Below are positions 190-44,586 of a stretch of 63,938 bases of DNA, one piece after another. Source of the stretch: Alphaproteobacteria bacterium (GTDB lineage Bacteria; Pseudomonadota; Alphaproteobacteria; RF32; CAG-239); NCBI GenBank assembly GCA_017444525.1, contig JAFSWL010000019.1, positions 1-63,938 on the forward strand, given 5' to 3'. How positions within the stretch are numbered: position 1 is the first letter of the stretch; each line of letters begins with the position of its first letter. Under the pieces are notes generated by a model. That model was given only the letters and a program-made list of their open reading frames with translations, was not told the DNA's origin and did no database searches. The position numbers and the translations under genes are program-made.

Positions 190-468
190 AAAAAGCCGTA
201 TAATGAGTCAGATACGACGGAAGTCTGTTTATGCCGTGTACAAAAGAGGTACATAAACAGCGGTGCAGAACATATAAAAATCTGTAGAATGAGGTAAATA
301 CGAAGGGGGATTTTGACGACGTGTACAAAAGAGGTACATAAACAGCGGTGCAGAATATATAAAAATCCGGATAATGAGGTAAATACGCAGTAAGCGGATT
401 GGTGCGGTGTACAATAAGAGGTACATAAGCCAATCCGCTTACAAGTAGTTACCCATTATACGGATTTT
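190..468 (-). repeat. Stop-codon-anchored palindromic element (full copy 361-468) plus two ~85-bp tandem half-copies
   Basis: AAAATCCG..ATAATG..TAC-[stem]-GTGTAC..GTACATAA-[stem]-AAGTAG..CATTATACGGATTTT; abuts TAA of the cyclophilin gene; related copies at four other loci. Confidence 0.9.
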
Positions 469-1074
469 TTAGATGTCGGATATGACGGAAAGGGCAATAA
501 TCTCATCCGGATTTTCAACCATTCCATTGGGTTCGCCGCCTTTTTTAAGCATATCGACATATTCCATACCGGAGGTTACTTCGCCCCAAACCGTGTATTG
601 ACCGTCGAGCCATGGACAATCAGCATAACAGATAAAAAATTGGCTGTCAGCCGAATCCGGCATCATGGCACGCGCCATCGACACGGTACCGCGCTTGTGC
701 GGAGTGCGGTTAAATTCTGCCTTGAGCTTTTTGCCGCTACCGCCGGTGCCATCGCCGCGCGGACATCCTGCCTGCGCCATAAAGCCTTCAATGACTCGAT
801 GAAATTTCAGGCCGTTATAAAAACCCTGTCGCACCAATTCTTTTATTCGAGCCACATGATTAGGAGCAACATCCGGCAGCATTTCTATTATCACATCACC
901 GTATTTTGTTTGCAGTAACAATGCATTTTCCGCATCTTTTACTTTATATGAATGCTTGATTTTTTTGGCTCTGCTTTCGCTCATTGCCAGTTTTTTGGTA
1001 TCTTTATTTTCTAAATTTTTAGTATTAGGTTTAGTTAAATTTTTAGTTTTCAAATTTTCCAATAAATCAGTCAT
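469..1074 (-). CDS. Cyclophilin-type peptidyl-prolyl cis-trans isomerase
   Basis: FYNGLKFHRVIEGFMAQ, SMARA, SADSQFFI, WLDGQYTVWG motifs. Confidence 0.95.
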   Translation of the reverse strand: MTDLLENLKTKNLTKPNTKNLENKDTKKLAMSESRAKKIKHSYKVKDAENALLLQTKYGDVIIEMLPDVAPNHVARIKELVRQGFYNGLKFHRVIEGFMAQAGCPRGDGTGGSGKKLKAEFNRTPHKRGTVSMARAMMPDSADSQFFICYADCPWLDGQYTVWGEVTSGMEYVDMLKKGGEPNGMVENPDEIIALSVISDI

Positions 1075-1115
1075 TTCTACTTCCTTTCTTTTATCTATTA
1101 ATTGTATTTAGGAAG

Positions 1116-2072
1116 TTACATTGCGTTATTCAAGACATAATCCACTCTTTCTTCTGCTGAAAGATTTTGCGGATAATATTTATCTACATTTTTAATAACT
1201 TCTTTTAAACCGCGACCGTTGGCTATTTGAATCGCCAACCCCGGACGAGCATTCAATTCCAGCATCATCGGTCCGCGGAATTTATCCAGCACGATATCTG
1301 CCCCCAAATAGCCGAGGCCGGTCATTTCATAAGCAAGTGCACCAATCATCAGATGTTCGCGCCACATCGGAACTTGCAAAGTCATCAAATCGGCCTCGGT
1401 ATCAGGATGTATGGCAATCGGCAGATTATGCGATACTGCATTAATGGCCTGTCCGGTACGCATATCAAGTCCTACTCCGACCGCCCCTTGGTGCAAATTA
1501 GCGCGCCCATCAGATTCTTTGGTAGCAAGGCGCATCATTGACATAATCGGATAACCCTTATAAACAATCACACGCACATCAGGAATCCCTTGATAACTAA
1601 AATTTTGAAAAGCATCGCTGAAGTGCACCAATTCTTCTATCAAAGCCGTATCATATTGTCCGCCCAAACTGTACAAACCGCTCAAAATGTTGGAAACGTG
1701 CTGATACACTTCGTTAAACCCGAGTTTTTTACCGCTGGCCGTAACAAACTCTTCCCCGCTGAATTGTTTAATTACCAAAACGCCTTTACCTTGACTGCCA
1801 TGTGCCGGCTTAATTACAAACTCGGAGTGTCCTGACACAATTTTAAGCAAATCTTTTACCTCATATTGATGTTCAATCACCCCGATTTTATGCGGAGTAT
1901 TGATATTGATGCGATCCGCCAGCGTTTTGGTCTGCACTTTATCATCCACCAACGGATAGAGCGAACGTTTGTTGTTGCGACCGATGATAAAATAATTTCG
2001 GGCATTCATACCTAAAACACCGTGCTCACGCAACTTCTTCGGATTAGAAAAAATTTTAAAATAATCCCACAT
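1116..2072 (-). CDS. Alpha-L-glutamate ligase-like ATP-grasp protein (RimK-related)
   Basis: GMNARN, LVDDK, FVIKPAHGSQGKG, GRANLHQG, LELNARPGLAIQIAN. Confidence 0.9.
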   Translation of the reverse strand: MWDYFKIFSNPKKLREHGVLGMNARNYFIIGRNNKRSLYPLVDDKVQTKTLADRININTPHKIGVIEHQYEVKDLLKIVSGHSEFVIKPAHGSQGKGVLVIKQFSGEEFVTASGKKLGFNEVYQHVSNILSGLYSLGGQYDTALIEELVHFSDAFQNFSYQGIPDVRVIVYKGYPIMSMMRLATKESDGRANLHQGAVGVGLDMRTGQAINAVSHNLPIAIHPDTEADLMTLQVPMWREHLMIGALAYEMTGLGYLGADIVLDKFRGPMMLELNARPGLAIQIANGRGLKEVIKNVDKYYPQNLSAEERVDYVLNNAM

Positions 2073-3611
2073 TTATTTTTCCTTAATCAGCGGTGCAAAA
2101 CGTTTCAGCTCAACCAGACGATATCCAGTATAAGTACCGAGCTGCATTACCACAATCAAAATAACCAGATTCCATTCATTAAATGCAAACATAACATGGC
2201 GAATATATGTACTGCTTATCACAAAATAAGTCAAAATCGCCACCAATGATGTATTAATGATTTGTTTTGAAGCATTACGCGCACCTTCTTCTTCCCATGT
2301 AATTGAAGCGCGTTCAATAATCCATGCGGTAATAATAATCGGAAAGAATACGGCGGAAGCAGCAATTTTGAAATTATACTGATAGCCTAATATGGTCAGC
2401 AATTGCATAATCAAAATCACAAAAATCACTACTGCGGAAATCCGCGGCACCAAAAGTAGGTTAAGGCGCGTCAACAAAGTGCGAACCAAAAGTCCGAGTA
2501 CAATAATCAGCAAATAACAAATCAACCCAGACCAAAAACCGGTGCGTACCAATGACATAGCCACCAGCATCGGTGTAAAAGTTCCCATAGTCGGAATACC
2601 GACGACGTTTCGCAGCAATACCACCAACAGAATGCCCAGCGGGAAAATCATCAGCCATTTAAGAGTATTCTGTTCCAAAGTAGGCAGATTATAAATTGTA
2701 AAATCAAACATTCTGCTTTGTTCGTATTTTGCGCGACGACCAGCCATCTTAAACGACGAAACCGCCGATTTTATAACAGAAAATCTGATTTCGGAATTAC
2801 GCCCGCCGACAACATCATAAAGCGAAACTCCGCCGCGCTGGAATACTACAAAATTTTTAGGCAAACCGGATGCGCCGTTTTCAATATTATATACCATCCA
2901 TTTACCGTTTTCATAAACTTCAAGCATTAAATCCGCCGGCGTTTCGCGTCTTTTTTCCAATATTTTGATACCGCGGACAATCCGCGCTGCGATTCCCTTA
3001 AAAGAAAGCAGATAAATCATCTTTTCAGCCATAATTCGCTGCGATTTTTTAACCGGCAAAAAAGCGTCTACCTCCGGTTCCAAAACCTCATCATTAAGCA
3101 GTTCGATTATGCGTGTTGCTGACGAACCTTCTTTTTTTTCTTCAGCCAATTTCCAAATTTCTTCAACCATAGCTTTTTGCTGCTCGTTTTCAAATGTAGG
3201 CTTTGTAACTTTTGGTTTATTGCGGTCACGCACCTTACCCACAACATCTTCATTGTCATACAGCATAATACGATAATATATATCTTGTCGATGTTTCTTC
3301 GGTGCCGATTTCATAATCATACGATGGCTTTTTTCATCTTTTTCAACCTTATAACCATTTGCCACCACGTCTTCGCTCAAAATCTTATATTCAGCTCCTA
3401 AACGCGGCGTAGACAGAGATACTTCAATCGGTTCACCGGTCGGCACAAAAGAGATATGCGCGTCAACCGTCCAAATTTCCGTACCCTCGCGCGGGCTGAA
3501 ACTAAATCCCCAATGCTTAATTTTGTAATATGTAGCATAGCTCGCAAAAGCAATTGCAAAAAACAAACAAATTGCTAAAACACCACGAACAGAACAAATT
3601 TTCTTTTTCAT
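2073..3611 (-). CDS. Inactive transglutaminase family membrane protein with 7TM C-terminal domain
   Basis: LRNVVGIPTMGTFTPML, LLLVPRISAV, FFPIIITAWIIER, GTYTGYRLVELKRF; operon context with ATP-grasp ligase. Confidence 0.88.
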   Translation of the reverse strand: MKKKICSVRGVLAICLFFAIAFASYATYYKIKHWGFSFSPREGTEIWTVDAHISFVPTGEPIEVSLSTPRLGAEYKILSEDVVANGYKVEKDEKSHRMIMKSAPKKHRQDIYYRIMLYDNEDVVGKVRDRNKPKVTKPTFENEQQKAMVEEIWKLAEEKKEGSSATRIIELLNDEVLEPEVDAFLPVKKSQRIMAEKMIYLLSFKGIAARIVRGIKILEKRRETPADLMLEVYENGKWMVYNIENGASGLPKNFVVFQRGGVSLYDVVGGRNSEIRFSVIKSAVSSFKMAGRRAKYEQSRMFDFTIYNLPTLEQNTLKWLMIFPLGILLVVLLRNVVGIPTMGTFTPMLVAMSLVRTGFWSGLICYLLIIVLGLLVRTLLTRLNLLLVPRISAVVIFVILIMQLLTILGYQYNFKIAASAVFFPIIITAWIIERASITWEEEGARNASKQIINTSLVAILTYFVISSTYIRHVMFAFNEWNLVILIVVMQLGTYTGYRLVELKRFAPLIKEK

Positions 3612-3633
3612 CTCAAAGTCCTTATGTTTGATT

Positions 3634-4167
3634 TTATTTCAGCGTGTTTGAAATAGAAACATCAACAATGGCGCGTCCACTCAGAATATTGCGTCCGATT
3701 AATCCCTGATATTCAAAATCATGACGTTCATTCAATGTAAATTCGGCAACAAACATTTCCTTACCCATTTTTACATCCATGCTTACGGTTACGCGATGTT
3801 CTTCCTCGCCTGTACGTTTAATCTTAACTCGCCGCACCAACGGCTTTTCAAAATCCAATTTTTCGTTAGTATCGCGATTAACCAGCGTAAACGACACCCA
3901 TTTTTGACCATCTCGTTCAAAACGCTTAATATTGTCGGCATCAACGGAAGAAGTTGTCGCTCCTGTATCAATACGAGCCAAAAAAGGCGACTTCATCGGC
4001 GGAAAATATATCCGCTCCACCGCACCAATTACATTATCCGGTCTCACGGTTATAATTTTTGCCGGCTGAGCCGTACTTGGTACAATCCCCGGCACCACTT
4101 TTTCTTCTTTAGTCGCGCACGCTGCCAATAAAAGTACGCATAAACAAGCTGAAATTTTTTGCATAGT
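3634..4167 (-). CDS. RimK-associated aspartyl-type protease (so-called ATP-dependent Zn protease family), lipoprotein
   Basis: ARIDTGATTSS, FTLNER, LIGRNIL; lipobox LLAAC; start set at MQKIS. Confidence 0.85.
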   Translation of the reverse strand, partial: TMQKISACLCVLLLAACATKEEKVVPGIVPSTAQPAKIITVRPDNVIGAVERIYFPPMKSPFLARIDTGATTSSVDADNIKRFERDGQKWVSFTLVNRDTNEKLDFEKPLVRRVKIKRTGEEEHRVTVSMDVKMGKEMFVAEFTLNERHDFEYQGLIGRNILSGRAIVDVSISNTLK

Positions 4168-4274
4168 TTCTACCATCCTGTTCTTAAACAAATATATTTA
4201 TGTATCTATCACAAACCCAAAAAAAAGAGCAAAAAAAAACGACTTATGCACATAAGCCGCTTTTATAGCATCAG

Positions 4275-5417
4275 CTAAAAATATACATTAAATCGTAGGG
4301 ACACCACTGTTGCATAATCCGACTTATAATTCAGTGCCGGATTAACATATAGCTGAATATCCGGAGTAAGCGCGGCCCATTTAGATATTCCCCAAGTCCA
4401 ATACGCCTCCCATACCTGTTCTCCGGTTTCAGCCAAAGGGGTCCCCACCGCTGTTTCGTTTATATTGTTATATGCATACGCAGCTCCGATTTGATCAAGC
4501 GAATTGCGTTCAAACGGGTTGTTATAAACGACTCCTGCCGTATATGAATTTTTGATTGTGGCAACATTGCCGTTGACACCGTTGATTCTCCCAAATACCG
4601 CCCACTTTTGCCCGATATTCTGCTGCATATTAAATGACCAACCGGTTGTTGATTGCGGCTGTTCCGACACATACGGCTGATTATATACCAATATTGAATA
4701 TTGTCCAACGCCCAAACCTTTTATTGTCGGATTGTACCCCACTTGACCAAATGTGGTATAATGCCCATCATGCAAATGATTCAAACGGACACTTACCGCC
4801 GAAATATTAGTTGCGTCTTGTAAACCAGCAACAAATTGCCAATTATTTGGCATAGCCTGAACATAAGCTCCGACACCGGCATCAGTGTAGGTCGCACTAC
4901 CGTTTTGCGATAAAGCATAGTTGATAAAATTGCCTTGTGGATTGTTATTATAATCAGTTCCATCAAAATTATATATTGTATATTGTCCTAAACCGAGCGT
5001 CATCCAATTATACTGTTGTGGTAATTGATAGGTATAATATAATGTTGAAAATTCTTGCTCTTCATCGTCCGCATCATTAATCGGCGTAACAACATTTATA
5101 CGATTTTCGATATCTGCAGCATCATGATTTGCATAAAAAACACTGGAGTAAGAAGCATTAAGTATGCCGGTTCCGTAATGATTATCAAAAGTTGTCCATG
5201 CAATGCTGGGATTAAGATAAGATTGCACCGAGTTATAGCGTCCGTTCGGCGAACCATGTTGAGCCAATACCGAATAATCGATATCATAATCAAATCCGTA
5301 ATTTTTACTCAATTTATTCTTAAAAGCGGTATAATCGCCTCCCAATGTTGCCGCCTGAACTACCGACAACGTACTTAACAAACATGCCAAAGTTCCGAAA
5401 AATAAACTTTTTTGCAT
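4275..5417 (-). CDS. Carbohydrate-selective porin, OprB-like
   Basis: Signal peptide; EQVWEAYW, LTPDIQLYVNPA; C-terminal Phe. Confidence 0.75.
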   Translation of the reverse strand: MQKSLFFGTLACLLSTLSVVQAATLGGDYTAFKNKLSKNYGFDYDIDYSVLAQHGSPNGRYNSVQSYLNPSIAWTTFDNHYGTGILNASYSSVFYANHDAADIENRINVVTPINDADDEEQEFSTLYYTYQLPQQYNWMTLGLGQYTIYNFDGTDYNNNPQGNFINYALSQNGSATYTDAGVGAYVQAMPNNWQFVAGLQDATNISAVSVRLNHLHDGHYTTFGQVGYNPTIKGLGVGQYSILVYNQPYVSEQPQSTTGWSFNMQQNIGQKWAVFGRINGVNGNVATIKNSYTAGVVYNNPFERNSLDQIGAAYAYNNINETAVGTPLAETGEQVWEAYWTWGISKWAALTPDIQLYVNPALNYKSDYATVVSLRFNVYF

Positions 5418-5497
5418 AACTCATCTCCCGAATGTTATAAACACACGGTTGATATATATCCTGTTTATCGAAAAAAAAGAGGTAAGTTCTTATAAAT

Positions 5498-5926
5498 TTA
5501 TCTGCGCAAAGCTTTTACGTATGCCTGAACGGAATGCTCATCACAATAAGTTTGCCCGCTACGCACTTTTTTGCCGCAAAAACAAAAATCATCATCACGC
5601 GGATCTCCAATCGGCCAACGACAGGTATGACTATCTAAATCAACCAACTTGATATTGGAGTTTTCGTTTTTATCCGCTGTTTTGGACTTTTCATCTGCAC
5701 TCTCGACAACATCAACCTCTGAGGCCGATAACGGTAATTTCGGCGCAGTTTGAACAGCAGATTCTTTAGGTTTAATCGGCGAAGGGCGAGCTGTCAGACA
5801 CAACCGATGCACCTTACCGACAATAGCATTTTTAGTTACCCCTAATTTCTTGGCAATTTCGTTTGCCGTCAATCCTTGTGCCCATAATTCCCGCAGTTTA
5901 TTCACGCTTTCATCTGTCCAACCCAT
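5498..5926 (-). CDS. gcrA: Cell-cycle regulator GcrA
   Basis: WTDE..L.ELWAQG, KNAIVGKVHRL, CRWPIGDP, YCDEH. Confidence 0.92.
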   Translation of the reverse strand: MGWTDESVNKLRELWAQGLTANEIAKKLGVTKNAIVGKVHRLCLTARPSPIKPKESAVQTAPKLPLSASEVDVVESADEKSKTADKNENSNIKLVDLDSHTCRWPIGDPRDDDFCFCGKKVRSGQTYCDEHSVQAYVKALRR

Positions 5927-6047
5927 AGTAAACCTCCAGTAAATTTATTATGTTATAGCGGATTATTTTGCCTCTGTCCAGACTAAATTTTATTCTTTAT
6001 TAATTTTTTTAGACTACAATTATCTAGTCTGTTTTGAGGAGAATACA

Positions 6048-7292
6048 ATGAAATTTTTTTATCTTGTTTTGACTCTGCTTATCAGTTTACCGGTACAAGC
6101 ACAGCTAAACCAATATAACAAGCTTCACACTGTTGACTTGGATGAAGAAATTCCGCCTTTACAACCTTTGCAACGAGAATACGATAAAGCTACCTCCCGC
6201 TACCGATGGAACTATGATTTCCGCTGGAATATGCCGAGTTTATTCAATTCAGAATTTAAAAAACAGATTACCGACTTCGGTATCATAGAAAAGCGTATTG
6301 CCAACGCCGATGAAGAATGGCTGTTACGAGAATTAAAAAAATTGCCTAAACAGATGTATCAGTATATTGGACCTCTTCTGCATACCAAACGCGGACTTTC
6401 CGGCAAAATTCTTGATTTACCTGGAATTAAAGAAACCAAACATAAATTTCCGACACAAGTCGCTTCTCCTTTTCGCAATATGCCTAATCTCGAATTTGCT
6501 TCTCCGGCAATGTATTTATATTTAAATCCGCTTATATGGGGAGAAGATATGGCTTCTCTGGAAATTCCGCAAGAAGTTGAAAATCCTAAAAAAAAACGAC
6601 CGCGTATGCGTATAAATCCGAATTTTTTGCATAAAATCAAAAGCCGAATAAAAGCAACAGATTATGCTTCAACCCCAAGCACTAAGCCTGTTGAATTGGA
6701 TTTGCGACACTTCAATCCGACCGTATCAACTCCGCTATCCAAAGCCGATGTCAGAGCTTTTATACGAACATTTGGCGCACTTGATAAGTTCCGCCGTCAT
6801 AATAATAATGAAATCCGGCTGATTATGATTGATTCATTGATAAATTATTGGGATACTAAAAATGGCATACCGGAAAATATTTTATTGTTTCGCCAAATCG
6901 TTAATCCGTGTCAACACTATGTCCGGAAAATTCGTTGGCTCAATTTACAAAACGAATTTCAAACAGCTATCGGCACACAAGGATTCGGAATAAAAGATTG
7001 GGCCTATACCTGCGATAAAATAATCAAGGCGCATCGCGTACATAATGCACCGTCCGGTATGATTTGGGGAGCACGTCAACAAAAAAGAAATGCCCTCTAT
7101 CCGGCAATGGAACCGTTTTTAATCTCAGCTGAAGAAAAACAGCAAATGCACTTTTTGTTGGACTCCTACGCTCGTATGTATTCTACCCGTTTGCGAGATA
7201 TAGAAGCCATTAAACCATACAACAACACCTTGCGCCACAAATTTCTGAATTTTGGAAAACATATAGGCGGAATCCCACTGGTATTCCCATAG
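6048..7292 (+). CDS. Hypothetical secreted protein
   Basis: 414-aa ORF, GAGGAG RBS, signal peptide ending VQA; no family recognised. Confidence 0.7.
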   Translation: MKFFYLVLTLLISLPVQAQLNQYNKLHTVDLDEEIPPLQPLQREYDKATSRYRWNYDFRWNMPSLFNSEFKKQITDFGIIEKRIANADEEWLLRELKKLPKQMYQYIGPLLHTKRGLSGKILDLPGIKETKHKFPTQVASPFRNMPNLEFASPAMYLYLNPLIWGEDMASLEIPQEVENPKKKRPRMRINPNFLHKIKSRIKATDYASTPSTKPVELDLRHFNPTVSTPLSKADVRAFIRTFGALDKFRRHNNNEIRLIMIDSLINYWDTKNGIPENILLFRQIVNPCQHYVRKIRWLNLQNEFQTAIGTQGFGIKDWAYTCDKIIKAHRVHNAPSGMIWGARQQKRNALYPAMEPFLISAEEKQQMHFLLDSYARMYSTRLRDIEAIKPYNNTLRHKFLNFGKHIGGIPLVFP

Positions 7293-7328
7293 ACCACTAA
7301 GATGCAGAAGAAAGATAATCTGCCGGCT

Positions 7329-7678
7329 AAAAATCCGGATAATGCGGTAAATACGAAGGGGTTTTTCGACGACGTGTACAACAAAAGGTACATAAACCAA
7401 CAGGCACGAACTTGCTAAAAATCCGGATAATGCGGTAAATACGAAGGGATTTTTTTCGACGTGTACACAAACAGTACACGAGAAAATGCTCTTATAGCGG
7501 CTAAAAATTTAGAGAATAAGTCAGATACAAAGAAGGATTTTTTCGCCGTGTACAATAAATTATACGGCAAATAAAAACTCGAAGAATTAGGTTAATACGA
7601 AGGGGATTTTTTTCGACGTGTACACAAACAGTACACGAGAAAAAAATCCCCAAGTAGTAACCAATTATACGAGTTTTT
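7329..7678 (-). repeat. Stop-codon-anchored palindromic element (full copy 7573-7678) plus three tandem half-copies
   Basis: Inner stem GGGGATTTTTTTC/GAAAAAAATCCCC; overlaps the fabG TAA. Confidence 0.9.
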
Positions 7679-8414
7679 AAATCATGGCCATCCCGCCGTT
7701 AACGTGAATAGTCTGTCCCGTAATGTATTGCGCTTCATCGGATGCTAAAAATGCAACAGCGTTGGCAATATCTTGAGCCTCTCCAAGCTTGCCTTCTGGG
7801 ATTTTAGCCAAAAGAGCAGCTTTAACGTCATCAGGAAGAACATCTGTCATCGGCGTACGAATAAAGCCCGGAGCGATTGAATTAACGGTAACACCGCGAG
7901 AGCCTACTTCTTGAGCCAAGCATTTATTCATGGCAATCATGCCGGCTTTGGAAGCAGAATAGTTGGCCTGCCCTGCATTCCCCATTACACCAACAACGGA
8001 AGCCATACCGATAATACGTCCGTAGCGGCGCTTCATCATACCGCGAACCACGGCACGAGCCAATTTGAAACCTGCGGTAAGATTAACATCTAAAACAAAC
8101 TGCCATTTTTCATCACTCATACGCATAAACAAATCATCTCGCGTAACACCGGCATTATTAACCAAAATATCGATTTTGCCAAATTTTTCTTCAACGGCTT
8201 CCACCAAGGATTTTATAGCCTCTGTATCGCCCAAATTAGCCACAAAATATTCGACGTGATCACCGAGCTCGTCCTTAAGAGCCTTCAGGCCCTCTTCATT
8301 CATATCGGTCAGAGCCAAATAAGCCCCTTGTTCATGCAAAGTATGAGCGATTCTACGACCGATACCGCCGGCGGCACCGGTAATCAAAGCAACTTTTTCA
8401 TCTAATTTAAACAT
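7677..8414 (-). CDS. fabG: 3-oxoacyl-ACP reductase
   Basis: TGAAGGIG, NNAGVTRD, NYSASKAG, APGFIRTPMT. Confidence 0.96.
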   Translation of the reverse strand: MFKLDEKVALITGAAGGIGRRIAHTLHEQGAYLALTDMNEEGLKALKDELGDHVEYFVANLGDTEAIKSLVEAVEEKFGKIDILVNNAGVTRDDLFMRMSDEKWQFVLDVNLTAGFKLARAVVRGMMKRRYGRIIGMASVVGVMGNAGQANYSASKAGMIAMNKCLAQEVGSRGVTVNSIAPGFIRTPMTDVLPDDVKAALLAKIPEGKLGEAQDIANAVAFLASDEAQYITGQTIHVNGGMAMI

Positions 8415-8437
8415 ATTATTTTCCTTTCATTTTAAGG

Positions 8438-9382: not shown

Positions 9383-9558
9383 TAAATTCCTTTCATCTGT
9401 TCTCTAGGGATTGTATAAATATCGTTCTTCAGAATGTCAAGAAAAACGCCGTTTATGTTCACAATAACTTTTATATATTTTATCGTTTTTTAATCTTTTA
9501 TTGAGGATTTACGGCTATAATCCTAACAATTAAGATTTGCGTAAACTTGAGGAAAAAA

Positions 9559-15235: not shown

Positions 15236-15490
15236 TCAAAGATTTTCAATAATGATCTTGCAGAACGTGATATATACACCGAAGGCTTCTCTGCGATATT
15301 TGGGTGCGAATACGATATGGTATTTACAACTCCACGTCGTGTGTGCTAATGTGTATGTGGTCATTTTAAAACCTCCTTTATATTATTTTGTTACTCAGTG
15401 GTCAGACTGTCTAACTCATTATATAAAGGAGGTTTTATGATGTAAAGCTATAAGCTTTCCGGAACCCCCAGACTATCTGGGGGTTTTCTT
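15236..15490 (-). mobile_element. tnpA: IS200 left-end remnant with truncated tnpA (ORF 15364-15236)
   Basis: Terminal hairpin AACCCCCAGA-TAG-TCTGGGGGTT, anti-SD/SD inverted repeat, ORF MTTYTLAHTTWSCKYHIVFAPKYRREAF (IS200 TnpA N-terminus). Confidence 0.85.
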
Positions 15491-16116: not shown

Positions 16117-16414
16117 AAAAAATAGAATTAGGCTAATAGAAAAAGGGTTTTTCCCGCAGTGTACAACCAATCAGCAATGATTTCGCAGAACGTGATATAT
16201 ACGCCGAAGGCTTCTCTGCGCTGTGCAAATTGCACAGTCCCAAAAAACTCTTTTAATGAGGTTAATACGAAGAAAGTTTCCTCGCGCGGTGTACAACACC
16301 ACCCCACAAAAAAACTCATAGAATTAGGCTAATAGAAAAAGGTTTTCTCCCGCGGTGTACAAAGTAGTACATAAGGGAAAAAACCTTTGATAGTAGCCAA
16401 TTATATGAGTTTTT
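16117..16414 (-). repeat. Stop-codon-anchored palindromic element (full copy ~16310-16414) plus two degenerate half-copies
   Basis: Inner stem AAAGGTTTTCTCCC/GGGAAAAAACCTTT; directly follows the rpsD TAG-TAA. Confidence 0.85.
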
Positions 16415-16415
16415 A

Positions 16416-17030
16416 CTATCTGGAGTAGTATTCGATAACCAAATTCGGCTCCATAACCGCCGCGTACGGAACATCTTCAAACTTCGGCACAAAAGTATAA
16501 GTAGCCTTTAACTTTTTGGTATCAACTTCCAAATAAGTCGGGCATTCGCGAGTTTGTGATTCGATTGCATTCAAAACAATGTTCAAACTCTTGGATTTTT
16601 CGCGAACTTCGATAACATCACCGACCTTAACCATATAAGACGGAATGTTTACCTTTTTGCCGTTAACGGTAACATGCCCATGGTTTACAAACTGACGAGC
16701 CGCAAATACGGTCGGAACAAATTTAGCTTTATAAACCAAATTATCCAAACGAGATTCCAACAAACCGATTAAGTTTTCGGCGGCATCACCCGAACGACGA
16801 ATAGCTTCGGCATAATATTTTCCGAATTGCTTTTCAGAAATATTACCGTAATAAACTTTCATCTTTTGCTTAGCAATCAATTGTTGACCATAGTCGGTAA
16901 CTTTTGCTTTTCTCTGACCATGTTGTCCAGGGCGATAGCTTCTTTTGTTAAACGGGCTGTTATTATCACCCCAAAGATTGTCGCCATAGCTACGGCTGAG
17001 TTTTTTCTTTGCAGAAACGATACTTTTCAT
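16416..17030 (-). CDS. rpsD: 30S ribosomal protein S4
   Basis: [32 protein letters not shown]. Confidence 0.97.
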
Positions 17031-29101: not shown

Positions 29102-29104
29102 TAT

Positions 29105-29861: not shown

Positions 29862-30064
29862 ACACGAGTCATATAGCATGCCTTTTTTTAAAAATCCAGT
29901 AAAAAACGTATTTTATGCTTAAATTAATCATTAAAATAATGATAACATATTGTTTTTACGAAAATTAATTACACATAAAAATTAATTAAAATGCAGTCTA
30001 TTCATAAAATATTTTATGTAAAAATTCCATCTTGATATTTTTAAAAGAAGCTTTATATTAATAA

Positions 30065-30361
30065 GCGTCAGGAAACTGACTGTGACACCAGAGACCTTAT
30101 GAAATAGATGCGTCGGACCCGAGGGCAGTACTCGGCACCTCCACCATTTATGGGGGTGAAACAGGATTGACGGTGTATAGTAAAGATATGTGTTGTGTCC
30201 GGTGAGATACCACCGTTATCGGTTCAAATTAAATAAACGCAAATGATAATTTTGCACCTGTTGCCATCGCTGCGTAATGCGGCAAACGCAACAAACTTCA
30301 ATTCTTTAAGCTTTGGTTAGCATAAAGTGGGGCTGAGCCACCTAGCAACAGAACGGCTCGC
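30065..30361 (+). ncRNA. ssrA: Two-piece (permuted) tmRNA; tag ANDNFAPVAIAA
   Basis: Acceptor piece ends CACCTCCACCA at 30146; GGGGGTG restarts at 30152 (G3-U pair); GGCAGTA T-loop; tag ORF 30239-30277; outer ends approximate. Confidence 0.93.
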
Positions 30362-30383
30362 TTGTTTTTGGGTAGAGGAAAAA

Positions 30384-35336: not shown

Positions 35337-35354
35337 CCGATAATATTTTACAAA

Positions 35355-36023: not shown

Positions 36024-36105
36024 TGTTACTCCCCTTTCTTTATTATATGATAAACCCGATTGTAGCACAATTTCAGATTTTGTAAATTATATTTTTATAT
36101 CGTAA

Positions 36106-36777: not shown

Positions 36778-36792
36778 CTTAATATCTCTATA

Positions 36793-37671: not shown

Positions 37672-38296
37672 GCCGACCTTCCTTATTTTTATTGTTCGGC
37701 TGAGTATTTTGCCGTGCCGCACGTTTCCGTTTGGTGGATTTTTTCTCCACCGACCAGCCGAATTTACCGATTTTGCGTCCTATTCCGTAATAGAATCCAT
37801 GAGCATACGCCAACAATCCGGCCTTTTGCAAATCAAGTGCTTGCTTGCCGTTGATATAATTTTCATCAACATCGACCGCCATCACTTCAGCCAAAAACAT
37901 ATCGTGTGTTCCGAAAGAAGTAATTTCTTTAACCCTGCATTCCAGTGAAATCGGGGCTTCTGCCACTTGCGGCGCACTTATTTTTTTGCAAGGTGCGGCG
38001 GTAATCCTCGCCAGCTTAAACTTATCAATGCCGCGTCCGCTTTTAACTCCGCATAAATCGACCGCCTTTGCCAACTTGGTTGTCGGAATGTTTATGGCAA
38101 ATTCTCCGGTTTGGCGGATTAACTCATTACTGTATCGCGACGGGCGTATCGACACATATACAAGTGTCGGCTCGGTACATATAATCCCCGTCCAAGCTGC
38201 CGTCATTACATTCGGCTTCTCCATTGTTCCGCAAGAAATCAGTGCTGGCGGAACCGGTGCCAGCATTGTTCCAGGTTTCCAACAAACTTTTGTCAT
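37661..38296 (-). CDS. Flavin reductase family protein
   Basis: PVPPALISCG, NVMTAAWTG, CGVKSGR..DKF, GTHDMF. Confidence 0.9.
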   Translation of the reverse strand: MTKVCWKPGTMLAPVPPALISCGTMEKPNVMTAAWTGIICTEPTLVYVSIRPSRYSNELIRQTGEFAINIPTTKLAKAVDLCGVKSGRGIDKFKLARITAAPCKKISAPQVAEAPISLECRVKEITSFGTHDMFLAEVMAVDVDENYINGKQALDLQKAGLLAYAHGFYYGIGRKIGKFGWSVEKKSTKRKRAARQNTQPNNKNKEGRHGK

Positions 38297-38545
38297 ATAA
38301 AATCCAGTCCGACATATTACAACACTAAAGTAATATATAACTAAAATTTCAATTCGTCAAGCTCCGTTGGTAAATGCCGCCGGAGCTGACTTTTCAGGAA
38401 CAAAAATTATGAATGAAATTTTACAGACATTTATGATATAATCGTCATCTCAAAATAAAAAACCGCGATAATAGTTTAATAAATAACAAAATACTGTTGT
38501 CAAATCAGCCGTAAGTATCTATGATTAGCTCTAAGGGAGAAAAAA

Positions 38546-38791
38546 ATGAAACAAATTGATTTCTGTAAAATATCTTTTGAAGAAGCTCTGACGCAACTTG
38601 AAAACATTGTGCGCGAGCTTGAGGCCGGTAAAATCAAACTTGATGATGCCGTTGAGGCATATGAAACCGCCACCGCGCTCAAAAAATTCTGCGAAGAAAA
38701 GCTTAAAGCTGCCCAGCTCAAAATAGAAAAAATCAACATAACTCCGGACGGCATTGTTCAATCGGAACCTCTGGATAAAATAGAAGAATAA
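38546..38791 (+). CDS. xseB: Exodeoxyribonuclease VII small subunit
   Basis: SFEEALTQLENIVRELE; precedes ispA. Confidence 0.93.
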   Translation: MKQIDFCKISFEEALTQLENIVRELEAGKIKLDDAVEAYETATALKKFCEEKLKAAQLKIEKINITPDGIVQSEPLDKIEE

Positions 38792-38793
38792 AT

Positions 38794-39690
38794 ATGACTG
38801 ACATTATCGCAATTCTGAAATCGTTCTCGGCAAAGTTTAATATTGACTTAGAAAAATGCTTTCCACCGATTGACGGTGCCGAAAATCGCGTTATTGAGGC
38901 AATGCGTTATTCGGTTATGAACGGTGGCAAGCGTCTGCGCCCGTATTTGTTGTGCGAATGTGCGGCTTTGTTCCATGTTCCGTACGAAATTGCGTTTAAG
39001 GCCGCTGCTTCACTCGAAATGCTTCATTCTTATTCTTTGGTACACGATGATTTACCGGCAATGGATAATGATGATCTGCGTCGCGGTAAACCTACCTGTC
39101 ATAAACAATTTGACGAAGCTACCGCTATTTTGGCCGGCGACGGACTTTTGACCTATGCTTTTGAATATTTATCAAATGCATTAGAGATTCGTCCGGAAAT
39201 TCGTCTGACTCTACTGCAGCTTTTGTCATCTGCCGCCGGAGCATTCGGTGGTATGGTAAGCGGACAAACACTTGATATTTATGCCACTCCGAGTACCGAT
39301 AGTACACACGATAAGGCGATTATCTCGCGTTTGGAAGAGATGAAAACCGGACGATTGCTGCGCTATGCTTGCGAGGCCGGTGCGATTTTGGGACAAGCTC
39401 CGCTGCCGCTGCGTCAAATTTTGATATCATATTCCCGCAAAATCGGACAAGCATTTCAAATCGCCGATGATATTCTCGATCGCGAAGGTGACCAACAACT
39501 TGTCGGCAAAACCCTGCACAAAGATGATAAACAAAACAAATTCACGTTTGTATCCTATTACGGTATAGAACCGGCCCGACAAAAAGCCAAAGAACTTATA
39601 ACTGAGGCCATTCAAGAAATTGCCGTTTTCGGTGCAAAAGCTCATAATCTGAAAGCATTGGCACAATATATAATTGAGCGAAAATATTGA
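38794..39690 (+). CDS. ispA: Farnesyl diphosphate synthase
   Basis: GGKRLRP, HDDLPAMDNDDLRRGKPT, FQIADDILD. Confidence 0.93.
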   Translation: MTDIIAILKSFSAKFNIDLEKCFPPIDGAENRVIEAMRYSVMNGGKRLRPYLLCECAALFHVPYEIAFKAAASLEMLHSYSLVHDDLPAMDNDDLRRGKPTCHKQFDEATAILAGDGLLTYAFEYLSNALEIRPEIRLTLLQLLSSAAGAFGGMVSGQTLDIYATPSTDSTHDKAIISRLEEMKTGRLLRYACEAGAILGQAPLPLRQILISYSRKIGQAFQIADDILDREGDQQLVGKTLHKDDKQNKFTFVSYYGIEPARQKAKELITEAIQEIAVFGAKAHNLKALAQYIIERKY

Positions 39691-39701
39691 TACAAAATCT
39701 G

Positions 39702-39730
39702 TTGCAAGTCGCCTGAAAATATGGTATACT
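39702..39730 (+). promoter_or_regulatory. Sigma70-like promoter
   Basis: TTGCAA-17 nt-TATACT. Confidence 0.55.
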
Positions 39731-39761
39731 TATGATATACAGTATAATTATGGAGGTTGCG

Positions 39762-40196
39762 ATGACAGAAAAGAAAGATTCAGAAGGATTGAAATTCTTA
39801 TTCCGACTTGATCTGGCTGGTGCGGATCAGGATAAACTTTTGGAGCTTGCTCGCGCTTCAATTGAAGAATCGAAAACTCATCGTACTTTCAGTGAGCGTA
39901 AAGAACTTATTACCAATCCTGACAGTTTGAAGGTTAATGCCGCGCGCGCCCACATAAAAGCCATGGTCAGTACTGATTTATCAACTAACAATAAACTTTA
40001 TATGATCATGGAACGCTATGTCGAGATTGATGAAAAAAAGCATCCGACAACACCGCGTCACAAAGCTCTCGATAAGTTTTTCAATGATTTTGCAAAAAAA
40101 TATCCCACCGAATATGGTGCTGCTAAAGTTGAACACAAAAACACCAATCAACCGATTGGTTTGGCGCTTCACGCACGCGGCAACAGTATTATATAA
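39762..40196 (+). CDS. Hypothetical protein (orphan)
   Basis: GGAGG RBS before MTEKK; own promoter; hairpin CGCCATTG/CAATGGCG downstream. Confidence 0.7.
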   Translation: MTEKKDSEGLKFLFRLDLAGADQDKLLELARASIEESKTHRTFSERKELITNPDSLKVNAARAHIKAMVSTDLSTNNKLYMIMERYVEIDEKKHPTTPRHKALDKFFNDFAKKYPTEYGAAKVEHKNTNQPIGLALHARGNSII

Positions 40197-40336
40197 AAAC
40201 AAAATTTTCAGACTTTTCTCCTTGCGCCATTGTTTTTTACAATGGCGTTTTTGTTTGCGGCAAAAAATAAAAATTGCTTGCTATTTGTATAAAATACGGT
40301 ATTGTAATTCGCGTAATCATAAAAACGGAGAATAAC

Positions 40337-40915
40337 ATGACAACATTTGTTTTAGCTTTGATTTTAGTTACTTTATATACACTTCCGGCGAATGCCAATC
40401 CGGCTTGTGCCGTATGCACTGTGGCGGTTGCCGCCGGTCTGGAAATTGCCCGCAAATTGGGAGTTGACGACGGAGTTATCGCCATTTGGGCCGGTGCTTT
40501 GCTGACTTTAATCGGTTATTGGACGATTCTCTGGTTTGATAAAAAAGGTTGGAATTTCAAATTTCGCAACGCGATTTTGATGTTGTTGTCTTTCTCAATG
40601 ATTTTTGCAGTATATATTAAAGATTTGACCTATACCCCGAAACCGATTCTGATTTTCTATATGGATCCGTTCCTGTTTTGTGGCATTTTGGGCGGCTTGA
40701 TTTTGATTTACAGCTCGGTGTTCTATCAATGGATGAAGAGAAAAAACGGCGGTCATGCACATTTCCCGTTTGAAAAAGTTGTATTACCGGTTGTAGCATT
40801 AGCCATTGCCGGATATGCCGTAAATTATCTGCACATATGCGAATCAGCAGCAAGCGAGGCTGCTACAGCGGCTATCCCTGCCGACGGCTCAGATATTTAC
40901 GATTTTGACGAATAA
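40337..40915 (+). CDS. Uncharacterised membrane protein with N-terminal CxxC
   Basis: Signal-like segment then NPACAVCTVAV..GVDD; GGHAHFPFEKV; several TMs. Confidence 0.75.
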   Translation: MTTFVLALILVTLYTLPANANPACAVCTVAVAAGLEIARKLGVDDGVIAIWAGALLTLIGYWTILWFDKKGWNFKFRNAILMLLSFSMIFAVYIKDLTYTPKPILIFYMDPFLFCGILGGLILIYSSVFYQWMKRKNGGHAHFPFEKVVLPVVALAIAGYAVNYLHICESAASEAATAAIPADGSDIYDFDE

Positions 40916-40942
40916 ACGAATATAAACCTGTATATTTTTTAT

Positions 40943-41048
40943 AAAATGCGATTAATGAGTCAAATACGCAGTTACCCTTTTTGCGCGGTGCACAAAAGAG
41001 GTACATAAGCAAAAAGGGCAACAAGTAGATGACCATTATACGGATTTT
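40943..41048 (-). repeat. Stop-codon-anchored palindromic element (single copy)
   Basis: Inner stem GTTACCCTTTTTGC/GCAAAAAGGGCAAC; overlaps the ileS TAA. Confidence 0.88.
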
Positions 41049-44000
41049 AAGCACATTTCTGAGCGTCATAAAGGACAGATATTCCTTCAATTTCTCCCTC
41101 AGTGCCGCCGGCGCAATCGGAAACAACCTTAATCGCCAAAACCTGATCGGCAATATAAGACTGATTTTCCTGCAAAGCCTTAGCCAATTCCGCATCAGCA
41201 GTGGAATAGTTGAGTTCGATACGGTCAGAAATATTGAAATCCTTATCCTTACGCAAAGTCTGTACCAAGCGCACGAAATCGCGAGCCATACCCTCACGTT
41301 TAAGTTCGTCGGTAACATTTGTATCAAGTGTCAAAACCGCTTTATTGTCGGCGAAAGATTGTCCGGCTACACCGTCTTTCATATCAAGGCGAACTTCAAA
41401 CAAATTGCTGGCCAGAACTTTGCCGCCGATAGACAATGTGCCATCGCTGTTCAATACCCAATTACCCTGCTTATAGGCAGCCATAACCGCGCCCATATCT
41501 TTACCCAATGTTTTACCCAAAAGCGGAGTATATAGATATACGCTCTTGGTTGCATAATTGCTCAAGTTATCATCAAAACGAACTTCTTTGACATTCAGCT
41601 CGTCTTTAACAATTTCCTGATACTCCGAAGAAAGCGATGCTCCGATAACCGTCATACTGGCAAGCGGCAGACGATTGCGCAGATTTTTTTCTTCACGGAT
41701 AAATTTGCCGGTTGAACACAAATCTTGAACAAAGTCCATTTCCGACATCAATTTTTCATCCGATTTAATAGCGTTTAAAGTCGGGTAATCGCATAGGTGT
41801 ACGGATTCTCCGCCGGTCAGATTCTTATATATGTATTCTGCAATAAATGGCATAACCGGCGCCGTCAGCTTTGCAACATTGACGAGCACGGTGTAAAGCG
41901 TATCAAAAGCCTGTGCATCACCGCGCCAAAAGCGCTCGCGAGTACGACGGATGTACCAGTTATTCAAAATTTCCATAAATGCGGCTGTTTCACTGCAAAC
42001 TTCGGCAATATCATACGTTTCAAAGCCGTGTTTTAATTTTTCACCAAGTGTTTTAAGTTTGGATAAAATATAATTATCCATCGCCTCGCTTGAAGCGGAA
42101 ATTTCCTTCGCTTTATAATCTTCTGCATTGGCATAAAGAGTAAAGAAGTAAAAAGCATTCCACAGCGGAATCATTGCCAAACGCGAAGCCTTGGCTATTT
42201 CCTTACCTTCTTTGTCAACAGCAACATTACCACCCTTCAACACCGGCGAAGAAACCAAGAACCAACGCAATGCCTCCGAACCGACGGTTTCCAGAATTTC
42301 ATTCGGATCCGGATAGTTTTTCAGGCGTTTGGAAAGTTTTTGCCCACCCTCAGCCATCAGCAAACCGGTGCAAATACAGTTTTTGAATGCCGGACGATTA
42401 TGCAAAGCAGTAGATAATACTGTCAAAGTATAGAACCAACCGCGGGTTTGGTCGATTGCTTCCACAATAAAATCCGCCGGAAAATGGTTTTCAAACCATT
42501 CTTTATTCTCAAACGGATAGTGCACTTGTGCATACGGCATCGAGCCGGATTCAAACCAACAATCAAAAACATCGCTGACCCGACGCATCATAGTTTTACC
42601 GGACGGATCATCCGGATTCGGATATACAACATCGTCAATATACGGCTTATGCAAATTTTCCACCGTTACGCCGGTTGCCGCCTTAATTTCATCCAGTGAA
42701 CCAAACACGTCAATACGCGGAAACTTCGGATTATCAGACTTCCAAACCGGAATCGGCGTACCCCAGAAACGATTGCGTGAAATCGACCAATCGCGTGCAC
42801 CCTCCAGCCATTTACCGAAACGACCGTCCTTTATATGCCCCGGAATCCAGTTGATTTGCTGATTATTAGCAACCATTTCGTCACGAAAATCGGTAACTTT
42901 AACAAACCATGAACTCATCGCCTTATAAATCAGCGGTGTATCGGTGCGCCAGCAATATGGATATGTGTGTGTATATTGCTCCTTTTTTACTAACAATCCG
43001 TTTGCCTTGAGCCATTGCATAATCGGCTCATTGGTGTCAAATACCTGTTGTCCGGCATAATCGGCAACTTCACTCGTAAATTTACCGGCTTCATCCACCG
43101 GACATACCACTGGAAAATTCTCATCATAAGCGCGGCAAGCCTCAAAGTCATCCTGACCGAAGCCAGGAGCAATATGCACCACGCCGGTACCGTCTTCGGT
43201 TGATACAAACTCACCGGAAAGTATTTTGAACGCGCCTTGTTCTTTCAGGTGCTTAAAATACGGGAACATCGGCTCATAACTCAAACCGAGCAAATCAGCT
43301 CCTTTAATGGTTTTAACCTGTGTTGCGTGTTCCAGTTGTTTTTTATAACTACCCAAACGCGCCACGGCGATAATATACTGTTGTCCATCTTCTTCCATTA
43401 CTGCATAGTCAATATCTTTGCCCACCGCTAACATTAAGTTGGAAGGTAACGTCCACGGCGTAGTGGTCCATACCAAAATTTTCTGCCCCGTTTCAAGTTT
43501 AAACATCACCGTTATGGCATTATCAGTCTTATCACGATAACCAAGATTCACCTCAAAGTTGGAAAGCGGAGTTTCCGCCGCCCACGAATACGGCAAAACG
43601 CGATAATCTTCATAAACCAAACCCTTGTCATACAGCGCCTTAAAGTTATGAATAACCGATTCCATAAACGACAGGTTCATTGTCTTATAATCGTGATTAA
43701 AGTCCACCCAACGCCCGATGCGTTTGAACATATCTACCCAAATACCGGAATATTTCAACACGTCTTTGCGGCAAAAATCATTAAACTTTTCTACACCGTA
43801 GGCTTCAATTTGTTTGCGCCCCGAAACTCCGAGTTGCTTTTCGGCAGACATTTCCGCCGGCAAACCATGACAATCCCAACCTAACCGGCGTTCCACTTTT
43901 TTGCCGTTCATAGTCTGAAAACGCGCCACAACATCTTTGACATAGCTTACCATAATGTGTCCGTAGTGCGGCGTTCCGTTGGCAAACGGCGGTCCGTCAT

Positions 44001-44139
44001 AAAACACAAACTCAGCGGCACCGTCACGATTGTGTACGGATTTTTCAAATGTATTATCTTCGTCCCAGAACTTTAAGACTTCTTTTTCCAGTTCGACAAA
44101 GTCCGGCTTTGCCTTTACTTCAGCATAGTATTTCGTCAT
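41047..44139 (-). CDS. ileS: Isoleucyl-tRNA synthetase, type 2
   Basis: DGPPFANGTPHYGH, GWDCHGLP, WTTTPWTLPSN, DQTRGWFY, KLSKR; type-2 C-terminus without Zn finger. Confidence 0.97.
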   Translation of the reverse strand: MTKYYAEVKAKPDFVELEKEVLKFWDEDNTFEKSVHNRDGAAEFVFYDGPPFANGTPHYGHIMVSYVKDVVARFQTMNGKKVERRLGWDCHGLPAEMSAEKQLGVSGRKQIEAYGVEKFNDFCRKDVLKYSGIWVDMFKRIGRWVDFNHDYKTMNLSFMESVIHNFKALYDKGLVYEDYRVLPYSWAAETPLSNFEVNLGYRDKTDNAITVMFKLETGQKILVWTTTPWTLPSNLMLAVGKDIDYAVMEEDGQQYIIAVARLGSYKKQLEHATQVKTIKGADLLGLSYEPMFPYFKHLKEQGAFKILSGEFVSTEDGTGVVHIAPGFGQDDFEACRAYDENFPVVCPVDEAGKFTSEVADYAGQQVFDTNEPIMQWLKANGLLVKKEQYTHTYPYCWRTDTPLIYKAMSSWFVKVTDFRDEMVANNQQINWIPGHIKDGRFGKWLEGARDWSISRNRFWGTPIPVWKSDNPKFPRIDVFGSLDEIKAATGVTVENLHKPYIDDVVYPNPDDPSGKTMMRRVSDVFDCWFESGSMPYAQVHYPFENKEWFENHFPADFIVEAIDQTRGWFYTLTVLSTALHNRPAFKNCICTGLLMAEGGQKLSKRLKNYPDPNEILETVGSEALRWFLVSSPVLKGGNVAVDKEGKEIAKASRLAMIPLWNAFYFFTLYANAEDYKAKEISASSEAMDNYILSKLKTLGEKLKHGFETYDIAEVCSETAAFMEILNNWYIRRTRERFWRGDAQAFDTLYTVLVNVAKLTAPVMPFIAEYIYKNLTGGESVHLCDYPTLNAIKSDEKLMSEMDFVQDLCSTGKFIREEKNLRNRLPLASMTVIGASLSSEYQEIVKDELNVKEVRFDDNLSNYATKSVYLYTPLLGKTLGKDMGAVMAAYKQGNWVLNSDGTLSIGGKVLASNLFEVRLDMKDGVAGQSFADNKAVLTLDTNVTDELKREGMARDFVRLVQTLRKDKDFNISDRIELNYSTADAELAKALQENQSYIADQVLAIKVVSDCAGGTEGEIEGISVLYDAQKCA

Positions 44140-44219
44140 ATTTAATACCTTAAATTTAATAGAAAATTGTTATAACAGATTTTTTTAAAAAGATTTTATG
44201 TAAAAGATGCCCTAATCCC

Positions 44220-44264
44220 CTAAGGGATAATATTGATAATGCGTGATATGTAAAACAGGCTCAT
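44220..44264 (-). CDS. Putative Ile-rich leader peptide MSLFYISRIINIIP
   Basis: AGAGGA RBS; 5 Ile codons in 14; ends 80 nt upstream of ileS. Confidence 0.7.
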   Translation of the reverse strand: MSLFYISRIINIIP

Positions 44265-44369
44265 CTTTTCCTCTTTATAATTAAACTGAAAGCAATGTAT
44301 ATCAACTTTTAACAAAGGTCAAGAGACTTTGCACCGATACATACAGCAAAATGCAAAATAGCAGAAACA

Positions 44370-44586
44370 ACAGCGGTGCATAACGTATAAAAAACCGTAG
44401 AATGCGGTAAATACGACGGAAGTCTGTTTATGCCGTGTACAAAAGAGGTACATAAAAAGCAGTGCTGCAGAACATATAAAAATCCGGATAATGAGTCAGA
44501 TACGAAGTTGCCCTTTTTGCGCGGTGTACAACAAAGGTACATAAGCAAAAAGGGCAACAAGTAGATGACCATTATACGGATTTTTT
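44370..44586 (-). repeat. Stop-codon-anchored palindromic element (full copy ~44478-44586) plus one half-copy
   Basis: Inner stem GTTGCCCTTTTTGC/GCAAAAAGGGCAAC; overlaps the nusG TAA; half-copy shares 46 identical bp with 212-257. Confidence 0.9.

Follow-up and report, generated by a model that had tools for sequence, protein, structure and literature searches.

A modular hairpin repeat anchored at the stop codons of core genes, a candidate transcription terminator in uncultured Alphaproteobacteria

Contig JAFSWL010000019.1 of the Alphaproteobacteria bacterium assembly GCA_017444525.1, analysed over its whole length of 63,938 nucleotides (nt) and hereafter called the window, carries five full copies of a hairpin repeat, each of them set directly at the stop codon of the gene in front and lying on the minus strand, that is, on the sense strand of that gene. 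We consider it fairly probable that this repeat is a lineage-specific, modular interspersed element that would serve as intrinsic, and probably bidirectional, transcription terminator and as 3'-end hairpin of the gene that it follows. In particular, the element and canonical terminators exclude each other at the nusG gene end across the genus, its stems covary while remaining complementary, and its position and orientation obey a strict rule.

The five copies stand behind the genes for a cyclophilin-type peptidyl-prolyl isomerase (PPIase), FabG, ribosomal protein S4 (rpsD), isoleucyl-tRNA synthetase (IleRS, gene ileS) and NusG. An initial annotation made from the letters of the window had pointed to these copies and named these genes, and both the positions and the gene identities were borne out (Table 1). 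An alignment of the copies spans about 110 nt, with a mean column identity of 75%, and in all five the stop codon touches or overlaps the 5' A-run of the element. The simple unit of about 105 bp described in that annotation had to be replaced by a composite one, made of a full unit, or head, and a variable number of tails: direct 3'-half units trail four of the five window copies.

When folded, each window copy gives a single long hairpin with interruptions (39-42 pairs within about 105 nt); the energies range from -39.8 to -49.9 kcal/mol and the z-scores from -7.5 to -10.6, and none of 200 shuffles folds as well as any of them. Specifically, the full unit opens at its 5' end with an A-run into which the stop codon merges; then come the left outer arm, a variable inner arm of 12-14 nt, the apex, a second inner arm complementary to the first, the right outer arm and finally a T-run. 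The apex is conserved and contains the TGTAC...GTACA mini-hairpin, whose 5-bp TGTAC/GTACA helix is the only essentially invariant helix of the element. The inner stem occurs in about 6-10 unrelated, self-complementary subtypes that recur at different loci (the nusG and ileS copies, 92% identical to each other, have the same one), and the outer stem changes by single steps (ATCCG, ACCCG, ACTCG), with the 3' arm matching each time. Asymmetric bulges and internal loops are retained across subtypes.

That inner and outer stems differ between copies yet stay complementary, as first noticed in the window, holds across genomes. In an alignment of 19 copies made with MAFFT only, RNAalifold predicts 28 pairs, 20 of which show compensatory double changes. 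A cross-genome set comprises 90 model-aligned copies from 82 sources, 86 of them distinct; this alignment was fitted to a covariance model (CM) and thereby favours the structure, and the MAFFT-only alignment gives an agreeing result. Among the 86 distinct copies, taken from many genomes, standard pairs fill 96.7% of the cells, versus 36-54% when the partners are slid, and double changes are found at 24 of the 28 pairs (527 cells), a level reached by none of 500 shuffles. In addition, a T-run of at least 4 follows the outer stem directly in 70 of these copies, and 63 start with an A-run of at least 4.

Abutment to the gene-end stop in a single orientation, likewise proposed for the five window copies, proved to be a genome-wide rule. 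In the host assembly (1.58 Mb in 50 contigs, 40% G+C, 86% complete), 17 of the 18 full copies detected by nhmmer start between -7 and +5 nt from the stop of a same-strand upstream frame of at least 190 codons, the eighteenth lying about 43 nt after a histidine-kinase gene. For 63 of the 86 distinct copies, an upstream frame of 60 codons or more ends -16 to +13 nt from the start of the element, with 48 of these ends between -5 and +2 and 28 of them at 0 or +1. For 18 others the upstream frames run off short loci, and the remaining 5 are exceptions to the anchoring, 4 of them representing the orthologue, in relatives, of this same histidine-kinase site. In other words, the random placement and orientation relative to genes that would have spoken for an indifferent repeat were not seen. 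The 63 anchored genes end in TAA in 52 cases, in TAG in 10 and in TGA in one, versus 62%, 17% and 20%, respectively, for the long frames of the host genome; TGA is thus nearly excluded, as it should be where a TA(A) supplied by the element makes up the stop or comes after it. The C-terminus of NusG is normal with or without the element. The genes concerned are mostly core and highly expressed ones, coding for EF-Tu, DnaK, the ribosomal proteins S1, S4, L1 and L10, NusG, IleRS, FabG, PGK, PFOR, ThyA and RecR, with an OmpA-family protein, a FadL-type porin and others in addition; the core genes stand in conserved synteny and are not cassettes.

The relation of the element to ordinary terminators could be followed at nusG, for which 29 loci of the genus were usable, 22 without and 7 with the element. 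At 21 of the 22 element-free loci a canonical hairpin of 10-14 bp with a T-run starts 2-34 nt past the stop, and none of the 7 element-bearing loci has a strong canonical terminator, the only candidates being two weak 5-bp matches inside the arrays. Moreover, at five gene ends that carry the element in relatives but not in the host genome, a canonical hairpin with T-run was recognised by eye in the host at four. The element and those canonical terminators have one layout, consisting of A-run, stem and T-run. This mutually exclusive distribution is the main basis for reading the element as a terminator. Among the hallmarks of intrinsic terminators, the element displays a hairpin followed by a T-run and a slot at the gene end that, at nusG, is exclusive with other terminators. 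Once transcribed, the full unit would close into a hairpin of about 40 pairs whose base adjoins the U-run, as in intrinsic terminators. Copies that separate converging genes could plausibly act in both directions; one example is the ileS copy, near which a converging open frame of the plus strand ends at position 40915.

The units behind the heads have an architecture of their own. A tail consists of a short variable linker, a remnant of 5-8 nt of the left inner arm, the apex, the right inner arm, the right outer arm and the T-run. In a pooled search that was not deduplicated, 124 of 128 partial units are located downstream of a full copy and on the same strand, none of the 128 was found upstream of a head or on the opposite strand, and no 5'-half unit was recovered. 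After deduplication, 65 of 98 distinct heads carry 1-5 direct tails (0, 1, 2, 3, 4 and 5 tails at 33, 34, 17, 10, 3 and 1 heads, respectively). In the two tail units behind the PPIase copy, for example, the left arms are missing; the apical mini-hairpin is followed by a right inner arm belonging to another subtype, then by the right outer arm and the T-run. The folds of these two units (-3.7 and -16 kcal/mol) are no better than those of shuffles; RNAalifold on 118 distinct units and single folds compared with shuffles revealed no structure proper to the tails. The tail region behind fabG was also recovered as repeat families D2, D4, D8 and D9. The right arm of a tail is often of a different subtype from the remnant that precedes it, which indicates that tails are recombinant. 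Moreover, the score per model position does not fall with tail rank (0.57, 0.61, 0.61 and 0.55 bits). A simple chronological and decaying record is thereby ruled out, and the absence of decay argues for a head-plus-n-tails element homogenised by exchange, and against a trail of dead copies. The PPIase and fabG arrays differ between species in tail number and subtype. A scan of the arrays for sigma-70-like promoters returned sites no more numerous than in shuffles.

A hidden Markov model built from the five window copies gives, with nhmmer, 42 matches in the host genome, grouped into 20 loci, and the CM built from 19 copies finds 19 full-length copies there; neither this number nor the anchoring at stops could plausibly arise by chance. 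The same CM matches all 24 other genomes of the genus, with 1-28 matches each, and, in an order-level sample, 88 of 121 genomes and 17 of 19 genera; in 15 genomes sampled elsewhere in the class, from families other than that of the genus, it has no match. When 185,579 species genomes were scanned with a strict pattern, 50 stretches came up, all of them in records titled as uncultured (Alpha)proteobacteria or Rhodospirillaceae metagenome-assembled genomes (MAGs), and the named sources are the rumen or gut of ruminants. Comparison with Rfam yielded no matching family: Rfam 15 has none at gathering scores over the window, and at E up to 1, over four loci with full and partial copies, nothing matched the repeat, with a chance preQ1-II match elsewhere. 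Full-text literature searches retrieved no description of the hairpin-repeat family, which is apparently unpublished in the searchable literature.

The sites are more stable than the sequences that occupy them. Of 63 elements sampled in relatives, 53 stand at gene ends that also carry one in the host genome; most sites are common to species at 74-97% flank identity, and the element is kept behind fabG in 5/5 and behind the PPIase gene in 4/5 of the near relatives tested. Sites shared in this way across relatives are old. Nevertheless, the inner-stem subtype is replaced in place. Among 45 orthologous pairs, the identity of the element is more than 10 points below that of the flanks in 21 (58-72%, with another subtype), and in 10 the element is at least as similar as its flanks. 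The junction at the PPIase stop is identical in six species, and behind it stand heads of three or more subtypes, with tails that differ. At nusG, in a relative whose NusG is 99% identical, another full copy occupies the stop, and the head of the host genome is represented there by its 3' half only, collinear from the apex onward. In addition, a duplicate of about 14 nt of the first bases of the element (AAAACCCGTATAAT-like) directly precedes the full copy in some relatives, at the loci L022 (1487-1501), L028 and L036, and looks like the trace of a new head inserted just inside an older one. These comparisons show that heads are replaced in place and that the old head, at least sometimes, becomes a tail.

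A mechanism can be outlined from these comparisons. Spread and renewal would occur by recombination or template switching between copies and would need no dedicated transposase. Specifically, the conserved arms and apex would be the places where copies exchange, either by gene conversion or by template switching, and the number and subtype of the 1-5 direct tail modules often found behind a head would change by the same exchange. Palindrome-templated repair may help to keep the arms complementary.

A number of observations weigh against the terminator function proposed here. Canonical terminators are still present beyond two of the arrays, about 50 nt past that of the PPIase gene and immediately past that of rpsD, hence the element need not be the terminator at these two places. 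The simple terminator finder that gave these two clear cases was run behind all 19 arrays of the host genome and reported none within 800 nt at 6 loci, but its results are mixed and deserve little weight. The hairpin of the element is far longer and more interrupted than the stems of canonical terminators, it departs from the short G+C-rich stem of intrinsic terminators (about 5-14 bp, with a loop of 3-8 nt), and a consensus terminator scan calls no element in two arrays. The indications on the folding strand point in both directions. The three G-U pairs that the initial annotation had counted on the mRNA strand are exact (0, 0, 1, 0 and 2 over the window copies), but as an argument for folding as mRNA such pairs are ambiguous: among the consensus pairs of the sense strand, G-U outnumbers A-C by 58 to 22; on the other side, folding energy is lower on the antisense strand in 73 of the 86 copies, with means of -47.5 kcal/mol for the antisense and -44.1 kcal/mol for the sense strand. 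Moreover, the covariation could stem from palindrome-templated repair at the DNA level, without selection on RNA. Termination also leaves two features unexplained, namely the exact start at the stop codon, given that canonical terminators start 2-34 nt later, and the degree to which the tails are conserved at every rank.

Other explanations account for some of these points. It is conceivable, though unlikely, that the repeat is a selfish element of the REP or MITE kind that moves as single-stranded DNA when the chromosome is replicated, as with IS200/IS605 or RAYT; on this view the enzyme would have the hairpin as its substrate, the replication fork would set the orientation and any terminator activity would be incidental. 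The replacement of subtypes at fixed sites suits such an element, the scarcity of TGA among the anchored genes fits a sequence-specific TA(A/G) junction, and Y1-transposase genes exist in the host genome. In addition, the sense strand of the element is the locally G-rich, leading-strand-like strand in 19/19 copies of the host genome and in 42/45 copies in relatives, versus 61.6% of the long open-reading-frame bases in the host; the bias fits a process acting on the lagging-strand template, yet the leading strand is also favoured by genes with high expression, which confounds the comparison. The search for a linked RAYT or TnpA enzyme, suggested by the initial annotation, turned out negative: Y1_Tnp (PF01797; IS200/RAYT-type) is present in just 7 of 31 genomes of the genus and was not found in several element-rich ones, including genomes with 26-28 element matches, one of them rated 100% complete, an absence that is weak evidence in MAGs, which often lose insertion sequences. 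The IS200 copies of the host genome have different end hairpins. With these copies and the patchy Y1_Tnp, a RAYT or IS200 partner is unsupported; no parent insertion sequence with element-like ends was seen among the host IS200-type copies, other insertion-sequence families not having been searched. Moreover, recent jumping is unnecessary where most sites are common across species, and a target duplication could not be delimited, given the A- and T-run ends and the divergence of filled and empty orthologous sites, which is too great for alignment across the junction. The outer arms do complement each other.

Two further explanations concern the level at which the structure acts. A post-transcriptional or translation-coupled RNA element, gating mRNA stability or read-through rather than terminating transcription, appears distinctly improbable. 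Its 5' arm would start inside the footprint of the ribosome on the stop codon, so that the hairpin would close only after release, and the tails might offer alternative 3' partners. The 28 of 63 copies at offset 0 or +1, closer to the stop than canonical terminators, the excess of G-U over A-C on the sense strand and the maintenance of tail sequence at all ranks are in line with this explanation; the greater stability of the antisense folds, the lack of a conserved structure in the tails and the fact that their inner arms are usually of a subtype other than that of the head's left arm, which makes full alternative pairing rare, speak against it. Very unlikely, in our judgement, is a DNA-level site for protein binding or recombination, as proposed for REP/BIME or integron attC, where palindrome-templated repair and gene conversion would keep the arms complementary. 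Both strands do fold well (-40 to -56 kcal/mol), patchy exchange of arms between copies gives hybrid units, and the strict polarity of the arrays resembles site-proximal addition; simple snap-back copying, however, would erase the asymmetric bulges and internal loops kept across subtypes, the host genes are core genes in conserved synteny instead of cassettes, and the mutual exclusion with terminators points to a role in transcription. A more elaborate possibility, to which we likewise assign little probability, is a translation-gated and self-renewing terminator: with the 5' arm beginning under the terminating ribosome, the hairpin would close only after ribosome release, and a strand-specific process linked to replication and acting on hairpins in the lagging-strand template would install new heads at the stop without a dedicated transposase, each demoting the old head to a tail. 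If this were true, the arrays would be polar records of terminator replacement at essential genes. As to the two possibilities formulated in the initial annotation, a 3'-UTR (untranslated region) RNA element or a mobile element targeting stop codons, what emerged is a mixture of both: covariation, the terminator slot, dispersed but strict positioning and exchange of subtypes all hold, whereas no partner transposase was found.

Among known repeats, the closest in kind appears to be SPRITE and, for architecture, BOX. SPRITE is an interspersed repeat with a duplex longer than usual (18 bp) followed by a U-rich tract; it is enriched near the 3' ends of coding sequences and, in the passages available, is proposed as a co-opted terminator (PMC3049150). 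The hairpin repeat is likewise dispersed and multi-copy (19 copies in the host genome), with a long duplex and a U-rich tail at the 3' ends of coding sequences. SPRITE differs in its Firmicute host, and the comparison is one of descriptions, not of sequences; the passages that treat SPRITE mention no base-level abutment to stop codons, no covarying and interchangeable inner stems and no tail arrays, all of which are features of the hairpin repeat (PMC3049150). The BOX elements of streptococci are described in the same passages as boxA-boxB(n)-boxC, with a module count that varies between strains at a fixed locus (PMC3049150). Their likeness to the hairpin repeat is architectural only, namely an end module combined with a variable number of modules (0-5 tails over 98 heads). 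BOX has two distinct end modules and no tie to stop codons, whereas the hairpin repeat has one head plus n tails and a strict 3' polarity.

Other families of bacterial palindromes are more distant. REP, BIME and REPIN sequences are extragenic palindromes that often occupy the 3' ends of genes; their stems vary in a compensatory way, their orientation is linked to replication, and they may act in termination or in stabilising mRNA. As a rule, REPs are arranged as inverted pairs and are accompanied by a RAYT gene. REPs are 20-40 nt long and fall into GTAG- and CGTC-tagged superfamilies (PMC3733652). The hairpin repeat differs in being about 110 nt long, in having direct tails, with no opposite-strand unit among 128 partial ones, and in the patchy occurrence of Y1 genes (7/31 genomes); on these three features it is no REP/RAYT system. 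Rickettsia palindromic elements (RPEs), of which the initial annotation had been reminded by the apex, are alphaproteobacterial palindromic repeats of about 100-150 nt that are inserted in frame within coding sequences and translated. Both are gene-associated alphaproteobacterial palindromes, but the copies described here start at or after the stop codon and leave the end of the host protein normal; the resemblance does not hold, and on this hallmark an RPE is ruled out. In Neisseria and Pasteurellaceae, inverted repeats of uptake sequences, that is, pairs of a short motif, make terminator stems downstream of many genes; these lack the nested 110-nt scaffold, the stop anchoring and the tail arrays of the hairpin repeat. 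In general, known repeat families do not explain the exact stop abutment or the polar head-plus-tails architecture.

Table 1. Full copies of the hairpin repeat, their tail units and the adjoining gene ends in the window. Tail units are given with the model positions matched by nhmmer; fold, RNA folding energy.
Feature	Position (strand)	Score, fold and remarks
Full copy, PPIase	358..471 (-)	CM R1 104.6 bits; fold -49.9 kcal/mol, z -10.5; inner stem TAAGCGGATTGG/CCAATCCGCTTA
Cyclophilin-type PPIase gene	469-1074	stop TAA 469-471, at full copy
Two direct 3'-half tail units behind PPIase copy	189..344 (-)	about 275-344 and 189-259; model positions 41/42-110/111
Full copy, fabG	7570..7680 (-)	CM 115.4 bits; fold -48.4 kcal/mol, z -10.3; inner stem GGGGATTTTTTTC/GAAAAAAATCCCC
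fabG stop	7677-7679	TAA, within A-run of full copy
Three tail units behind fabG	7328..7558 (-)	about 7502-7558, 7416-7493 and 7328-7404; model positions 54-110, 31/32-110 and 34-110
Full copy, rpsD	16307..16416 (-)	CM 104.7 bits; fold -43.7 kcal/mol, z -7.9
rpsD stop	16416-16418	TAG, then directly TAAAAA belonging to the element
Degenerate tail units behind rpsD	16123..16297 (-)	16242-16297 and 16123-16166; model positions 54/56-109/110 and 56-100
Solitary full copy, ileS	40939..41051 (-)	CM 102.8 bits; fold -39.8 kcal/mol, z -7.5
ileS stop	41047-41049	TAA, at full copy
Full copy, nusG	44475..44587 (-)	CM 113.6 bits; fold -49.2 kcal/mol, z -10.6; repeat D7
nusG stop	44585-44587	TAA, at full copy
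One tail unit behind nusG copy	44388..44457 (-)	model positions 42/43-110/111; fold no better than shuffles

Some neighbouring features of the window and of the host genome are worth recording. The initial annotation had seen no cognate mobilising enzyme in the window; an IS200-type remnant is in fact present at 15278-15485 (-), though apparently unrelated to the repeat. It consists of a match to Rfam STnc490 at 15375-15485, a family that we take to be derived from the IS200 5' UTR, and of a truncated tnpA start with a weak Y1_Tnp match at 15278-15337. A 50-nt copy of the 5' part of this truncated tnpA (repeat D15, 90% identical to 15246-15295) lies at 16171-16220, between the tail units behind rpsD. 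Elsewhere in the host genome, intact and broken tnpA genes of IS200/IS605 type with classical end hairpins are found on three contigs (C21:17599-17964, C26:35357-36256 and C39:6715-6831); one of them adjoins a tRNA gene on C26, and a second left end then follows.

With regard to gene organisation, the genes for L1 (C25:37527), L10 (C38:1013) and NusG (window 44475-44587) each have an element of their own at the end, and the gene after nusG is ileS rather than rplK. In this lineage the usual nusG-rplKAJL cluster thus appears to have been broken up into units that are terminated separately. Other parts of the window contain a two-piece (permuted) alphaproteobacterial tmRNA gene at 30028-30362 (+), with 218.7 bits, which places the organism in the Alphaproteobacteria; dense tandem repeats at 48244-48823, with periods of 9, 21 and about 45 nt and CTTGTACCGCCGCCGGAGCTG-type units, which probably encode a low-complexity repeat protein; and, at 47991-48089, a short GC-rich hairpin (GGGCGGATAAATCCACCGCCC) that occurs, together with its flanks, as two neighbouring 44-nt copies of 91% identity, a pair that looks like a duplicated canonical terminator.

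The rule followed by the hairpin repeat is unusually strict, since the element starts on the stop codon, on the sense strand and on the leading-strand side. In practical terms, the covariance model is a marker for the ends of genes and the boundaries of operons in these MAGs, and the repeats themselves are likely break points in assemblies. If the element does act as a terminator, a family of uncultured gut and rumen Alphaproteobacteria would have replaced the ordinary terminators at many core genes, including tuf, dnaK, rpsA, rpsD, rplA, rplJ and nusG, with one recyclable structured module. This would represent a rare case in which one can trace, from species to species and at individual sites, how terminators originate and turn over.

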